Shown here in pieces: positions 7,106 to 31,561 of a DNA stretch of 64,000 nt; the stretch's first letter is position 1; each line of letters starts with the position of its first letter. Source of the stretch: Podarcis gaigeae. Its lineage: Eukaryota. Made by a program: the position numbers and the translations under genes. The stretch lies in NCBI GenBank assembly GCA_964106915.2, contig OZ066922.1; one strand, 5' to 3'. The notes beneath the pieces were generated by a model. That model was not told where the DNA came from, did no database searches, and worked only from the letters and a program-made list of their open reading frames with translations.

Positions 7106-10100
7106 ATAGACAAAATAATAGACCCCTTCAGTTTTGTATCTAAACAGGGCAGGTAGAATAAGCATAGCTTACCTGGCTATGGGAAGGCAGAGCAAGAGCT
7201 GAGGGGGTGGGGCAGGTTTCAAATGTTGCCAAGGGCCTTGGGGGCTACATGTGGCTCTTGGACCACCCTGCCCTAAATGCTGGAGATAATGGATCTACCC
7301 TCCTTCCACTACAAACTAGCTTCTATGTGCAGGGATTTGTCTTCTGATTATTGATAATTATTATTTATGGAAGAGCATTTTAAAAAGTGGTACAGTCCAC
7401 AAATAGGTTTTCCACTGATATTTCTTATTAAATGACATTTTAAGTAGAGAAAGAGATGCATTGAGTTTTGTTGTTCTCTATCAGCCTCCAGATGGCCAAG
7501 CTATAAAAGGGGATTAATTATCCTGTATATGTGAACACAGAGTCTTTGTCTTAGCTCACTTCATTTATTTATTTTCTGTTTTGCATATGCCATGAGTTCT
7601 CTCTCTCCCATTGACTCACTGATGACCCCCGGGATAGTCTCATCTGTAAAATGGGCCATTTTCTTGGGACAGAAAGGAAAATTTACTATACATTTCCTAT
7701 GATTTCTAGTTGTATTTTGATAGGGATCATATTGCATGATGGCATGGAACTTGTGAGGATTTACAGTGCTTTTTGCAGATTCAGATTTCGCTTACAAGGA
7801 ATAGTTTTATGGTTCAGGAGTTTTGTGAAAGAAAGCTGTATTCAGTCTCTTCAGTATAGAAAATAAAACTCAAGCCAAGCTGTATTAATCAAGTATCTTT
7901 TAAAAAAAAATTAAAATGTATTCCTGACAAACCTACAAACAGGTTAAAAACTGAGAGAGCTGATCTTTTTAATCCATTGCTGGGGGAGGGGGGTTACTTT
8001 CTGGCAGATTTTCTCATTCCCCAGTCTTGATGGCAGCTGAGGGCAAATGCCTGCTACTATTTCAGCAATAAATGAAAAGAAAACAGGTTTAGTAACTAAA
8101 CCACACGATTGTGCAATAAACTACTAACTACCTTGTTTAAATCTGAAAAAGTAAATGCATTGGTTGGTAGTAGTAAACATGTATAGGACTGGGAGAAAAG
8201 TGTGGTCTCCTGAAAATGCCTACTCCAATCTTATACACACTGATTTGTGAGTAATGCCCATTAAATTTAGTGACTATGGTTCATGGGATGCAGCTTGTAA
8301 TTAAGGCTGTGTCTGCCCTTGGGTTGCCATTTTCTTGCTGGTTCTATTTCTGCCTCCCAGCTGCCATTTTGTAATTTACTCTGCTGGGGGATGCCAGGTC
8401 TCTGGTTAAAGAAATAAAATAAAATTGCACGACAGGGGGAGAGAAAGCAGTTGTTTCTGTTAAGTATTGTTAAAATATCACTTGGGAAAGAAGTATGATG
8501 TAATATTTAAAGGCTCAAGTCTTGATAGCTTTTTCTAAAGTCTAGCAGATTTGTAGTCCAAGCCTTGCTTTCATTCTCAGTGTGAAAGGAAACAGTTGGG
8601 TTTCTGCTGTGGCGGATCAGGCTGTTAATGAAGAAATCTTCACTTTTGGAATTTGGCTAGTATTCAATGCAATTCGTAACTAATTACAACGTGTTGAGCA
8701 TTGTCTCTTTGGAGAGCTGTTACTTGAGAAGATTACCAACAAGCTAAAAGTTGCATCCTCATTATTGAAGTTCTCAGTTGTGATTAACCTTATTGCATGA
8801 AATTGTAACGTCCCTAGCCTTCGGAGCACTTTCCACTTTCCACTGTTGCAATGGGAGTCTTTTTTAAAAAATTGTTCGTTGCGGGTTGGGGAGCTGATAG
8901 TTCGAAAGAATCATTAAGTCTTCAAGTCATTAAGACTTGAATTACACGATTCTGCAATAAACCTATGCATCACTAGCACATAACTGTACGTGTGCTTTTG
9001 GTTTGCCAAGCTACAGTAGCCTTGGTTGAAAGAAATAGGGACCCCCTAGATTAAAGTCACTTGAGTAAAAGTCATAAGAACCACAACATAAACCATTGTG
9101 GATTTTGTTGTTGCTCTTGTTGCTTCTACTGACCTCCTATGAATTATCACCTGACAGAGACTTGACTCCAAAGCTGACACATTATGGTGGCAAGTATGAC
9201 CAGTTTTCCAGGAAGCATAATACTGTATATGACTGGATTTTACTCTTGAATGTAGCAATATATGTAGCTGAATAGTTCTTCAGTCAGTCTAAAAGCGACA
9301 AAAAATGAGGGAATATCAGACTTCTGTGATCCATGCAAATCATGAAATAATACTGTTTTAAAAATCTCATTCTGTTTTGAACTTTCATCAGTTCCACTGT
9401 AAGTTATGCATTGCCCTATGCCAAGAATTCCATGGCAATTGTGATGCCTTGCAGTGGTGCCATATGATGAATAGAAAAACCTGACTGTTCCTAGCATGCA
9501 ACTGCATGTGATATGGTTTTCAAAACTTTAAATGTGTTTACCTAAGCACCAATATAGTAGTGTTTGGAGTAAATTGTGTATTTCCAGTTGAAGCTAGTAC
9601 TGTATATTAAATCTCTGATGTCGTACGTTTGCATGTTTTGGATCCATGTAATCAGACATATTTCATGGGAAGGTATGTTTCATTCATAAAGGTTAACCAG
9701 GCATCACTGGGGGTGGGGGGGATGAAATATTATGGGGATGTAAAAGATTTTTGTATTATCCAAGTAAAGCAGGGTGCTGGATGTAGGTGGCGGAGGCCTT
9801 GAAACAGAAGAAGACTTGAATTTCTCACACCAAAAGAAACCCACATTTTTAAGGTCCTCTCATGGAAGAAATTTACAATAATTAAGTTTCACCCCCTAAA
9901 ATGGTATTCCTTGCTGTGGCGTGTCAGATAGCTGCCGCACCTGCTACTCCTTCCCCTCCCTCTCCCAGGACGATGTCTACAAAGGCGCATTACAAAGGTC
10001 TCAGACAGTCCTGAGTTGAAGCGTCCATCCCTTGTCCTGTACCCAACTGTGCTAAGGCTGCCTCTGATGCCGATTGCTCTGCAGAGAATATGCATCAGAG

Positions 10101-10791
10101 GAAGAGCTGGTTCTTGAATACATTTTCAGCTTGACAAGAAAATGTTTGGGAAAGCGCTCACTGAAGCATTTTCTTCATGCACAACAAAGGCTGAAGAAGG
10201 GACAAGCAAGGTCAATGTCTCAAATTATGCTCAATTATTTATTACACTGTGCTCTTATACGAACAGAGTGTAGTTCAATATGTTAACGCCACACAGGCTA
10301 CACCTCCCTCTTATTGACTGAGACTAAAAACAAAAGGGGGTAGAGGGCTAATGGGTACGAATAGAGGAGTGGAGAGATTACTTACTCCTGGCCAAAGGAC
10401 TATGAACAGATGCATTTCCAGAGGAGAGAGATCAACCGAGTGCCTACTAAATGTTTCATTTTAATTACGTGGAGAAATTTCTAATGCTGGTTTGCACTCT
10501 GTAGTAACTGGAATGTGGCTATGTCTCTGTGTTGGTGGCGGTGTTTAAAAACATTATCCCAAATGTGAACCAGGATGTGGCGAGGCATGGCTATCTCCCA
10601 AATTAGAAGGCTGAGAAATGACCTGTGACTAGTTAACCGTTCAGATTGTGCATGGCCCGAAAGGTTTTGTGATGACTGGGTAAAATTGTGACAGATCAAA
10701 CAAAGAGCCAAGCAGTAAAGTTCTAGAAGAACTGATTTTAGTCAGTAGGGTGGATCTAAAGAATGGTGAATAGAAGAAGTAAGTTAGGGGT

Positions 10792-10829
10792 GTATCTGAA
10801 GAAGTGTGCATGCACACGAAAGCTCATAC
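10792..10829 (+). ncRNA. Minimal type-I hammerhead ribozyme motif
   Basis: GUAU-CUGAAGA-A-GUGUG(CAUG)CACAC-GAAA-GCUC-AUAC: helix I GUAU/AUAC, core CUGANGA and GAAA, 5-bp helix II, palindromic AGCU helix III, CUC cleavage triplet ending at 10825. Confidence 0.75.
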
Positions 10830-10923
10830 CAAGAACTGACTTAGTTGGTCTTTAAGGTGCTACTGGAAGGAATTTTTTTTGTTTTGACTATGGCAGACCA
10901 ACACGGCTACCTATCTGTAACTG
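10792..10923 (+). mobile_element. Penelope-like element terminal fragment
   Basis: ctgaagaagtg...cacgaaagctcatacc...ttagttggtctttaaggtgctactgga...gcagaccaacacggctacc resembles vertebrate Penelope terminal repeats as I recall them. Confidence 0.75.
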
Positions 10924-11260
10924 GAGCTACCACTGCTGTTAAGCACTTGTTTAAGCACTAGGAGAAGAGTTCAGTCAGTCAGTGACCAAGTTACCTATAT
11001 AAACTTGCCTTACATGCTGATTCTCTTGTTAATCTTGTCTCTTTCAAATTGCTCAGATTAGCACTTTAGTTTCACATCACCCAATCTAAGGCCGACAGTC
11101 TAGTCACTGTATCTTCAGGTTCTCAGATATTAAATATATCTTTCTTACCTGTTTTTTTTAATAAATAAAATGGGCTGGAATGTTCTGTTAAGTTCATGTA
11201 TCCATGTCTACCTCAAGACAGCAGTACTGTTCACCACTGAATTCCTTTCCCTCTCCCTAG

Positions 11261-11371
11261 GTCTTCTTGTGGGAACTCTTGATGTTGTGCTGGATTCAAG
11301 TGCAAGGGTAGCGCCATATCGAATTCTATACCAGGCTCCAGACTCTATGATATACTGGACTATTGCCTGTG
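11261..11371 (+). CDS. TBC1D9: TBC1D9 exon 2 (111 nt)
   Basis: ctctccctag|GTCTTCTTGTG...GCCTGTG|gtaagt; (G)[36 protein letters not shown]. Confidence 0.95.
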
Positions 11372-14300
11372 GTAAGTATTTTAATAGTGGCTAAAATTAC
11401 CAGTTTCTTAGAGGACTGGATGTTCTTTGTACAGTGGTACCTCTGGTTATGAACTTAATTCGTTCCAGAGATCCGTTCTTAACCTGAAACCATTCTTAAC
11501 CTGAGGTACCACTTTAGCTAATGGGGCCTCCTGCTGTCGCTGCAGCGCCAGCACACAATTTCTGTTCTCATCCTGAGGTAAAGTTCTAAACCCAAGGTAC
11601 TACTTCCAGGTTAGCAGAGTCTGTAACCCGAAGTGTTTGTAACCCGAGGTACCACTGTAGTTCATAGGAGTACTGAATTGCATACTGTCTTGATGACAGG
11701 CATCCCCTCACTTACATGGAGCCCCCACATGAATAAGTGAAATGACATAAAGTGGGGGGCACCCCACTTTGATAGGGAGGGTCCACAGGGAGGAGAGAGA
11801 GAGAGAGAAACTCATTTGTGCTGCTGGGGCAGCTGCCTGGAAGTCGCTAAGGGCCATTACCTGGCCGGTCCCAAGCCTTCTCTGGATCGGAGCCCTGAAT
11901 GGCGTGCCTTCCCTCCTTTCCAGGAAGGAAGGCCAATTTATTTATGCATTTTGCGGTGACCCATATAAACGTCTTCTGGGAAAGCGTGTAAATGAGGGGG
12001 TTGCCTGTACAGTGGTACCACAGGTTAAGAACTTAATTCGTTCTGAAGGTCCGTTATTAACCTAAAACTGGCGCTGTGGGTTAAAGCCTCAGTGCCTAGG
12101 ACTTGCCGATCGAAAGGTTGGCGGTTCGAATCCCTGCGGCGGGGTGCGCTCCCGCTGCTCGGTCCCAGCGCCTGCCAACCTAGCAGTTCGAAAGCACCTC
12201 CGGGTGCAAGTAGATAAATAGGGACCGCTTACCAGCGGGAAGGTAAACGGCGTTTCCGTGTGCGGCTCTGGCTCGCCAGAGCAGCGATGTCACGCTGGCC
12301 ACGTGACCCGGAAGTGTCTCCGGACAGCGCTGGCCCCTGGCCTCTTAAGTGAGATGGGCGCACAACCCCAGAGTCTGTCAAGACTGGCCCGTACGGGCAG
12401 GGGTACCTTTACCTTTACTTTTTACCACTTTAGCTAATGGGGCCTTCCGCTGCCACCGCGCCACCGCACAATTTCTGTTCTCATCCTGAAGCAAAGTTCT
12501 TAACCCGAGGTACTATTTCTGGGTTAGCGGAGTCTGTAACCTGAAGCGTCTGTAACCTGAGGTACCACTATACTGTGTGATGACATCGTACTTGAGTAGC
12601 AGGTCATTTATGAGATCCAGGCTCTGAAATGCTAAAAAGTTATTTCCCATTTAATCTTCTGTAACTATCAGACTGGGCGATTAACCCCATCAAAGTTTTT
12701 GTCTATAATATGACATTTTAAATCTGGATCTCCAGTAAATCTGGATTTTATCCAGATTTACTCATGCTTAGATTAGACCAGCTGAAAGCAGTGGGTACAA
12801 ATTAGTCATGACTAAACCCCATTGATTTGTATAAGTGTACTCAAAGCACAGCTGAGTCTGGATCCAACCCATTGTGTTGCATTGTAGCCTGTTGTAATCT
12901 AGTGAGATTATATTGAGCAATGGCTGTGGTCTATTGTAGATGTAATACTGTCAAACTCTTAAGACACTTAAGAACAGGATACCAAGCTGTGTACAGATAC
13001 CATTCCCCCATTTCCTCTCTTATGTGGAATTTTTTGCTCCCTTTCCTTGTAAGCATTGATTATGACAAAAGTAATAAACTCTGGCTAGTATTAGCTATTT
13101 TGACATTGTTGCAGTTTTATGTAACGATCAGCGCCCATTGGGGGTGATCAACATGACGATCAGCACCCATTGGGGGCCATTGGTGTGGTGATCAGTGTCC
13201 AGGGGGGCAGGGCAGCGATCCACCCAGGGGGATTTTGTCACCCCCCTCAGGGATGACACCTGGGGCACACCGCTCCCACCGCCCCCTTCCTACGCCCCCT
13301 GTGTGCAGGTACAGGTGGGCCACACTTTTCATTAGATAATGTGTCTCTTACATTCCTTCTATGAAAATATATTTGAGTGCCCCAATTGTCCTTCCCATAA
13401 CAGAATTGCTAGTGGAAAGAAGGGAACAAAGCTGAGAAATATTAGTATTTTTCTTTTTTGAAAAAATAATAATACATTCCTGTTTCAGAATAAATTAAAT
13501 TCCTGAGAATAACAACAGTAACAACAAAAAGTTTTGAAGTGTGACGGCAGTTGTATCCATATTTAGAAATAGTGAATAGTAACCTCAGCTTTAATAATCC
13601 ATATATAAAAAATAATTCAGATGATGACTGCAGAAGAGATACTGTGATGGTAATGGCATGGTAACTCTGCATTTTATTGCTCCACAGGAGGCAAGACATC
13701 ATCATTTTGCATCTCTCTGGCGATTTTAAGTGCATTACCTATATGTTGTGTTATGGCTCTTTTGTAGGTGTGTAAAAAGCTATGGAAAGAATAACTCGGT
13801 CTTTAAAGCCACATCCGGAGTTATAACAATACAATTTCATGCAGTAATTGCAAGCAAAGTCCAACATGATGATCACATATGGGCCTTTGCTGCTGCTGCT
13901 TAAATTATGTAGGCTCTCAGAAATGATTTGTGTTGAAAAGGCAGAGCAGAAATGCCAGGCCTCCCTGGAAGCTGCAGAGAATGATCTCATTCCTCATCAG
14001 CCGAGCTGAGCTGAAGATAAGCTTATGCTTGCAATTCCCAGGAAATCATTTCACTACTGTGTTAGCTTTCTAATTTTGTGGCTAGGAAATAATTGATTTG
14101 CACGTACCTATGCCTTCCTGGCACTGTTGTAGCAAGCTCTTGAGTGATTTATATAATATGTACTGTATAACTTCTATTCATTCAGGAGTTCAGTGTAATC
14201 TATGAGCATAATTCTGTTGACATGAATTACTTAAATCCCATTGATTATTATAGGAGGGAGTTAAGCCCACTTTCTTAGTAAGTCCACAAATTATTTTAGC

Positions 14301-29859: not shown

Positions 29860-31561
29860 TGTACACAGAAACACAAACACACTTGTTAGTATGACTGTAT
29901 TTGGGGTTGTATACAGAATATCTTGGATCCCTCACAGTAGGCTTGCCACTAAGTCTGCAAAACTTTTCATAGAAGAGGAGGCAGGTGTGTTAACTCACTG
30001 GTAAACCAAAGGTCTATGACAGTTAACTTGAGCATGGGAGGTTTTGTAAGAATAGGACCTGATTAATGTACTCAGTGGGACGCAGGTGGCGCTGTGGGTT
30101 AAAGCCTCAGCGCCTAGGACTTGCCGATCGAAAGGTCGGCGTTTCGAATCCCTGCGGCGGGGTGCGCTCCCGCTGCTCGGTCCCAGCGCCTGCCAACCTA
30201 GCAGTTCGAAAGCACCTCCGGGTGCAAGTAGATAAATAGGGACCGCTTACCAGTGGGAAGGTAAACGGCGTTTCCGTGTGTGGCTCTGGCTCGCCAGAGC
30301 AGCGATGTCACGCTGGCCACGTGACCCGGAAGTGTCTTCGGACAGCGCTGGCCCCTGGCCTCTTAAGTGAGATGGGCGCACAACCCCAGAGTCTGTCAAG
30401 ACTGGCCCGTACGGGCAGGGATACCTTTACCTTTACCTTAATGTACTCAGTGGCTGAAATCCAAAGAATCACTTCAGGCACATTTGAATGGTGAGAGAGT
30501 TTTTTTATTATTTTAACAGCAAACCCTTATGCCATATCACAGACTTTGTGAAAACCTTCTTAGCTTCAAAAATGATTTGCCAATTAGCATTGCGGGTGGG
30601 GGGGGCATGTCCTTCTTGGGCATGCACAACTCACTGTGCAGTTGTTTTGGATCCTGGCCTATATCTGTAACCTACTTTCTCTTTTGTCAATTTTGCTCTG
30701 TTGCATTTTTAGGAGCTATTAATGAAATGGCCACCCACGCTGGCTATTATGAAGACTTGGTGGAGAAGTCTATGGGGAAATACAATCTCGCCACAGAAGA
30801 GATTGAGAGGGATTTGCACCGCTCTCTCCCAGAGCATCCTGCATTCCAGAATGAGATGGGTATTGCTGCTCTGAGGAGAGTACTAACTGCTTATGCATTT
30901 AGAAATCCAAACATAGGATACTGCCAGGTAATTCAAACTCATTTCATTTTGGAGAACCCAAATTCCTTCACTCATCCCTCTATTTATTGTTGCACACAGA
31001 GGCCAAACCTTCCATGCACTTATGGTAAATTTTGATCTAGTAGAGTAGGCTGGAAATTTTAAATCTTCCTGGAATTTAACAAGTGGGACTTGCAGCAAAA
31101 TGGTGCAATATATGATCCCTTATAACAGGAATTCTCCTTTTCAAAGTCCAGCCAAGCAGGACATTCAACTCTTCTCTCCTCCCCCCACACTTGGGTCTTT
31201 TGTGGTTTTCATTTCCAACTGACACTGCTGAATATACTCAGATGGTCATTGGGCTTGTGTGCATCTGGATGTTTAAGATTTTGTCTTTAAGATTTTTGGG
31301 GTGGGGTAGAACTTCTGCAAACCTCAGGGATCCCTTAGCATGCTGATATATCCATCTTGTGGCTACTACAGAACCACCAGCATCCACCACCTGGTTTGCC
31401 ATTAAAGGGAGTGACTTTGATTTAAAACTGGTGACTGATTTAAAACTGTTGTTATGTAGTAACACAGTAGACTACTTCTCCATTTTTAGTCACATATCTT
31501 GGACTTTGAAAAGGATGGCTTTTGCCTCTGCACATTTCCAAGGGAATGGGAAATGAGGGAG

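Follow-up and report, generated by a model that had tools for sequence, protein, structure and literature searches.

A minimal hammerhead motif in intron 1 of a Podarcis gaigeae GRAM-GRAM-TBC gene lies in a recent Penelope-like leader insertion and is probably an inert passenger

The window analyzed here, a stretch of 64,000 nucleotides from Podarcis gaigeae (contig OZ066922.1 of assembly GCA_964106915.2), contains exons of a GRAM-GRAM-TBC gene, which match GRAM (twice) and RabGAP-TBC in a domain search. This host gene is putatively TBC1D9, as against its paralogues TBC1D9B, TBC1D8, and TBC1D8B. Coding exon 1 begins 5,116 nt upstream of the window and coding exon 2 lies at 11261-11371 on the same strand, so that what stands between them on this strand is the sense strand of intron 1. 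An earlier note, made from the letters of the window, had described there an intact minimal hammerhead ribozyme motif about 435 nt before exon 2. Read letter by letter, positions 10792-10829 (GTAT CTGAAGA A GTGTG CATG CACAC GAAA GCTC ATAC) contain all of its parts, the two exons bear out its strand and intron, and the predicted cut falls 435 nt before the exon 2 start at 11261. The features of the locus are:

10788-10926, plus strand: 139-bp insertion of the pseudo-LTR (pLTR) leader ('R' plus tail) of a Penelope-like element (PLE), delimited by empty-site contigs
10788-10789, plus strand: GG at the 5' junction, present in neither the empty site nor the element template (CA)
10792-10829, plus strand: minimal type-I hammerhead motif, core intact; genomic copies have their 5' junction most often at G10792
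10792-10795 with 10826-10829, plus strand: helix I, GUAU/AUAC, 4 bp
10796-10802, plus strand: CUGAAGA box (core CUGANGA)
10803, plus strand: extra A between positions 9 and 10.1
10804-10808 with 10813-10817, plus strand: helix II, 5 bp, CAUG loop; G10804-C10817 is the G10.1-C11.1 pair
10804-10817, plus strand: helix II region, a perfect 14-nt palindrome whose predicted intermolecular duplex is far more stable than the double-hammerhead fold
10818-10821, plus strand: GAAA box, the second core box
10821-10824, plus strand: palindromic helix III (15.2-16.2), AGCU, no loop
CUC triplet ending at 10825, plus strand: predicted cut 10825/10826, with U16.1 and H17 present
10830-10886, plus strand: remainder of the PLE leader, with a T-tract at its end; first 3'-end cluster of genomic copies at 10879-10886
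10887-10924, plus strand: PLE 'tail' of about 38 nt; second 3'-end cluster at 10918-10924
10925-10926, with 10786-10787, plus strand: AG at both ends, a 2-bp target duplication or microhomology
11261-11371, plus strand: host coding exon 2, acceptor AG 11259-11260, donor GT at 11372

Other young interspersed repeats also lie in the host gene: an inverted-repeat element at 11428-11659, just past exon 2, and a pair of 300-bp repeats, 98% identical, at 12069-12368 and 30087-30386.

A loose core pattern matches the window 7 times against 5.7 expected, that is, at chance level. The full descriptor (helix I of at least 4 bp, helix II of at least 4 bp, and a palindromic helix III) matches the window once, at this site; none of the six other loose core matches satisfies it, and it had no match in 60 Markov-simulated 64-kb windows. 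That count speaks against the idea that short motifs in a repeat without ribozyme ancestry have come to resemble a hammerhead by chance. So does the agreement with the published features of minimal hammerheads, together with the location in a PLE pLTR, the setting from which such motifs have been reported (Cervera and De la Pena 2014, PMC4209133). The idea draws on an Rfam scan of 9500-12000, a check that the earlier note had proposed, which matched no hammerhead family up to E=10, and on the folding energy of the motif region, unremarkable relative to shuffles (z = -0.44); the predicted fold includes helices I and II. It also draws on a search of this genome for hammerheads with a different helix II, in which no compensatory changes turned up among 103 matches, nearly all of them single-base variants of one young family. 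Taken together, a chance origin seems scarcely credible.

The age of the motif is constrained by the orthologous site, compared in contigs from 8 of 24 listed runs. The site is empty in all six related organisms compared (B-G; samples X4, X5, X6, X9, X10, and X12, from five studies): in each, one contig runs from 10785 straight on to 10925, without the 139 bases between them, and the flanks differ from the window by about 1-3%. It is filled only in two samples of organism A (X1 and X2, one of which may be the source of the assembly), whose contigs enter the element from both flanks and for which no empty joint was listed. The insertion is therefore recent and lineage-restricted; both organism A samples carry it, and it may have gone to fixation. 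Because the 2-bp AG fits either end, the insertion may equally be written 10786-10924, and the GG at 10788-10789, supplied by neither target nor template, is likely untemplated. The target flank at 10777-10787 resembles the reverse complement of the element at about 10832-10845, with predicted pairing; as this flank is present in empty alleles, the likeness is either chance or a hint of homology-guided targeting. In the same intron, the organism C contig carries an insertion at 10555, with 19 bp that the window lacks.

The insertion belongs to a large family. When the genome was searched with 10600-10900, matches began only at about 10789, with identity up to 100%, and the block common to genomic copies ended at 10919-10929; 134-138 nt of the insertion match other copies at 99-100%. 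The exact 38-mer of the motif, whose genomic copies the earlier note had proposed to count, occurs 9,021 times (4,512 forward and 4,509 reverse), its reversed control has no genomic match, and a 26-mer from the 3' part of the insertion occurs 8,075 times. Longer copies take in, upstream, boxes resembling CCAAT and TATA and then the last part of an ORF, 78 copies run downstream into the start of one, and one locus (L131) holds, in order, the leader, a 915-aa ORF, a 3' UTR of about 180 nt, and the hammerhead again, as part of the next pLTR. The full element is thus an ORF, a 3' UTR with CCAAT-like and TATA-like boxes, the hammerhead, the leader, the tail, and the next ORF start; the tail holds the first in-frame ATG (10890) of the ORF, with the frame taken from L131. 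The L131 ORF matches the reverse transcriptase (RT) family RVT_1 (PF00078, E=5.6e-12), and its translation carries a CX4CxxC linker and, visibly, a Cys/His pattern of a putative C-terminal endonuclease; its match to GIY-YIG (PF01541) is weak (E=0.0033, 18.1 bits, below the 22.6 cut-off), and a PDB search with the element protein returned weak RT matches only. The Penelope origin proposed in the earlier note is borne out by this layout, by the RVT_1 match, and by the position of the motif within a PLE pLTR.

Copy structure was examined in the first 90 listed of the 8,075 26-mer copies, all in the first 9.6 Mb of contig C1. An inverted arm lies upstream in 59 of these 90 (hand count), an arrangement usual for PLEs, and partial tandems are found among element copies. 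A different PLE-like ORF end, GIY-YIG-like and without the Cys linker, lies at L067:1-1150 (G000:C1:2381082-2385682), a few kilobases from a copy of the hammerhead family, and a second PLE family in the genome is likely. Beside another leader copy, at L130:543-3892, are long gag-/pol-like frames of an LTR retroelement.

By its features the element would be of Neptune type or, given the same linker, possibly of Nematis type. It shares with the endonuclease-bearing Neptune-clade PLEs (Craig et al. 2021, PMC8557442) the RT and the CX2-5CxxC linker, as well as partial tandems, an inverted 5'-truncated copy, and a tail of 30-40 bp; their C-terminal GIY-YIG may be present too, by the weak match. With Poseidon PAc of Anolis carolinensis, as described by Frangieh et al. 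2024 (PMC11167929), it shares a hammerhead at the junction of pLTR and ORF, two 3'-end clusters separated by a tail of 30-40 nt, and probably an uncleaved RNA template. However, the PAc ORF starts inside stem II, whereas here every part of the hammerhead is some 60-100 nt 5' of the first ATG, and unlike PAc the ORF here has a Neptune/Nematis-type Cys linker.

The motif itself joins the known minimal PLE hammerheads. Those described from Metazoa in PMC4209133, including turtle and snakes, have the same core boxes, extra base between 9 and 10.1, G10.1-C11.1 pair, palindromic 15.2-16.2, and 4-bp helix I, occupy the same pLTR position, and are mostly single dispersed copies. The minimal type-I, dimer-dependent architecture claimed in the earlier note agrees with these sequence features and with that description. 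Helix II differs: here it has 5 bp, closes a CAUG loop, and is palindromic throughout, against 7-8 bp in Schistosoma. The lizard family hardly varies, in which it resembles the young D. virilis family, and the published minimal hammerheads are not known to be placed at a transcription start, unlike the one here with its proposed start. The animal non-LTR retrozymes (bioRxiv 10.64898/2026.07.22.740005) are likewise short non-coding units derived from PLE pLTRs with type-I hammerheads, and many are reported to be monomers, with 42-44% of Xenopus copies in introns. Active retrozymes, however, are described as tandem arrays with at least two hammerhead units, whereas this is a single unit with one copy in 84 kb. 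The family may be listed in the supplements of PMC4209133 and of the retrozyme preprint.

Several intronic hammerheads of amniotes, in RECK, C10orf118/CTCL, and DTNB (PMC6155905, PMC10761166), are likewise type-I. As reported there, these are conserved across species, active as single motifs, and self-contained in fold with a helix III, whereas the motif here is minimal, multi-copy, without a helix III loop, and missing from the orthologous intron position in the six relatives. The existence of these apparently domesticated ribozymes (PMC6155905), together with the sense orientation, the intact core, and the palindromic helix III, is what could be said for the role proposed in the earlier note, that of a functional cutter of the intron, dependent on RNA concentration, which controls the host gene by pairing in trans with other Penelope RNAs. 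The empty sites speak against it, as does the fact that this is one of 9,021 identical motifs equally divided between the strands.

Conservation of the core across copies does not favor such a role either. Of the 90 copies, 53 span the motif ungapped (37 were dropped as truncated or rearranged), and in 46 of these all 11 core positions are intact. Core positions carry 7 substitutions in 583 (1.2%) and flank positions, after removal of five subfamily-diagnostic columns, 16 in 2014 (0.8%; Fisher p = 0.33, a test of low power on young copies); four of the seven core substitutions are at G12, in a CpG. Dispersed copies thus show no extra protection of the core relative to the flanks, within the low power of the test, which is half of what the earlier note had said would refute its proposal. 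Older-looking subfamily members retain the motif despite differing flanks, most of them having been selected by exact motif match.

The 5' ends of the copies bear on whether the element RNA is cut before it is copied. If cleaved RNA served as template, junctions should pile up at 10826. Only 2 of the 90 copies start there, and genome-wide, with two non-template letters required before the position, there are 65 junctions at 10826, while the control positions 10828 and 10824 have 25 and 31. In contrast, the genome has 2,524 copies that begin with the first base of helix I (10792) and 1,336 that begin at 10790; the patterns used for these two positions were longer and admit older subfamilies, so that 2,524 against 65 is not an exact ratio. 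Cleavage was therefore rejected as the source of copy 5' ends. The cut-site count is about twice that of its neighbors, and 27 of the 65 junctions start AG-ATAC (hand count), as expected from microhomology with an inverted element start; similar microhomology is seen at 17 of the 31 control junctions (hand count). A further 14 of the 65 start GT, a type that cleavage-ended cDNA could also yield, and 8 of these 14 are the paired arms of four perfect palindromes centered on the cut (G000:C19:49599972, C26:49201749, C28:6024437, and C33:1521262). These four insertions are possibly rare products of cleaved RNA.

A splice junction, as in D. virilis, was considered as the cause of the pile-up at 10790-10792 and rejected: in 20 copies with G before the 10792 junction the letters further upstream reveal no fixed exon, and only 1 of the 90 copies starts at the base after the AG. 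The base before the 10792 junction is G in 70, A in 16, and C in 14 of the first 100 listed copies (hand count), an excess of G with p = 8e-14 against one third; before the 10790 junction it is mostly T, with no surplus of G. In four copies (L218, L230, L231, and L232) an inverted arm precedes the G, and the next base of that arm would have been a different one, which indicates that the G is untemplated. Untemplated 5' G in L1 and SVA insertions has been attributed to cap copying (PMC3287187), and by analogy the extra G here is probably a copy of the cap. It could alternatively arise from a one-base fold-back of the cDNA on the helix I complement or from terminal addition of C. The base beyond the extra G in the 70 copies is A in 33, T in 32, and C in 5, and this lack of a T excess argues against a longer fold-back without excluding it.

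A TATA-like box lies 30-33 nt upstream of 10789-10792. From the DNA junctions we infer that transcription starts some 30 nt past this box, on the base that opens helix I or no more than 3 nt away from it. D. virilis Penelope, as described in PMC2377424, instead has a TATA-less internal promoter. Since junctions pile up at the start of helix I and not at the cut site, the copied RNA is likely an uncleaved, capped leader, from which cleavage would remove the cap. In the open-licence literature we found no mention in PLEs of a cap-derived G, a TATA-adjacent hammerhead, or a ribozyme at the cap site. The 3' ends of copies cluster at 10879-10886 and 10918-10924, and 76 of the 90 tail-anchored copies end at 10918-10924; the two clusters are spaced as the PLE tail would have it, and like the pair of RT start sites described in PMC11167929. 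Many 5' junctions (for example those of L082, L013, L142, and L043) carry several short re-copies of the first 10-30 nt of the element, repeated template jumps at the RNA 5' end that are reminiscent of repeat addition by the related telomerase RT. The 14-nt palindrome at 10804-10817 is a frequent fold-back point of inverted copies, 6 of the 90 mapping to 10804.

Could the motif in the host intron cut at all? Having no loop on helix III, it requires a partner, and minimal PLE hammerheads are reported to be inactive as monomers and weakly active as dimers (Cervera and De la Pena 2014, PMC4209133). No second copy of the motif is found in the 84 kb covering the host gene. In folding predictions, the pair probability of helix I falls from about 0.7 to 0.16-0.18 with 100-200 nt of intron context. 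For two copies, the predicted energies are -30.6 kcal/mol for the dimer MFE, -28.0 for the palindrome duplex, and -11.1 for the double hammerhead, which places the double hammerhead about 19 kcal/mol above the MFE by nearest-neighbor energies that ignore tertiary contacts. The preferred predicted dimer would thus be a 14-bp duplex of the helix II region and not a double hammerhead, and the 14-nt palindrome could serve as a dimerization site. The distance of the double-hammerhead fold from the MFE counts against a regulatory cutter of the host intron, as do reports that slow hammerhead cleavage of introns does not block splicing (PMC2995048, citing Dye 2006 and Fong 2009). Together the empty sites, the 9,021 copies, the core with no excess conservation, and the single copy in the gene leave a cutter role in the host unsupported and, in our judgment, very improbable.

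A milder alternative is that the passenger is occasionally cut, for example in the germ line, on binding of the element protein or of a further RNA from the element, and that host mRNA is hardly affected, if at all. The core of the host-intron copy is intact, so that activity may persist; near-identical family members and at least one full-length ORF are present in the genome; the anole PLE hammerhead is reported to cleave once the element protein is added, and only then (Frangieh et al. 2024, PMC11167929); and there are the four perfect palindromic junctions centered on the cut site. However, the anole protein binds the first 172 nt of the ORF, while the stub holds about 35 nt past the first ATG, which by analogy may be too little, and the dimer predicted to be preferred is the helix II duplex. 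Occasional cutting seems to us improbable, if less so than host regulation.

We therefore favor, with a probability of roughly 0.87, the reading that the locus holds a 139-bp PLE leader insertion, absent from six relatives, and that its hammerhead probably sits inert in the host intron as a passenger. Under this reading, a capped element RNA would start at the hammerhead, behind the TATA-like box. By analogy with the anole Poseidon element, reverse transcription would begin inside that RNA, some 95 or 135 nt away from the 5' end, and run off that end, often adding a G that is probably a copy of the cap. The cDNA would then join the target, as at 10788-10926, or switch template to give inverted or tandem arms, and the outcome would be thousands of short promoter-less stubs, the copy in the host intron among them. 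In the host pre-mRNA, helix III of the lone motif could not close and would have no partner within the gene, and the motif would be spliced out uncut; without a partner, the hammerhead of the stub would decay neutrally.

For the host gene the insertion is probably without consequence, one of thousands of recent transposon stubs. For the element family, the junctions counted across the whole genome are in line with the in vitro work on the anole element, in which the template was uncleaved RNA; there, cleavage was dispensable for in vitro insertion, and RNA-seq showed no ends at the cut site (PMC11167929). What PLE hammerheads do has been called unclear (PMC8557442), and a ribozyme at the inferred cap site suggests a possible role in decapping. 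One could speculate, doubtful as the proposal is, that the hammerhead, as the first 38 nt of a capped, TATA-driven RNA, acts as an off-switch, cleavage licensed by dimerization of the palindrome or by the element protein removing the cap. If so, cleavage would limit translation or copy number rather than process the template, and the thousands of genomic junctions would record only the copying of uncut RNA. The PLE family also offers a useful natural experiment, in which filled and empty alleles in very close relatives serve as a control for any effect of a lone intronic minimal hammerhead.
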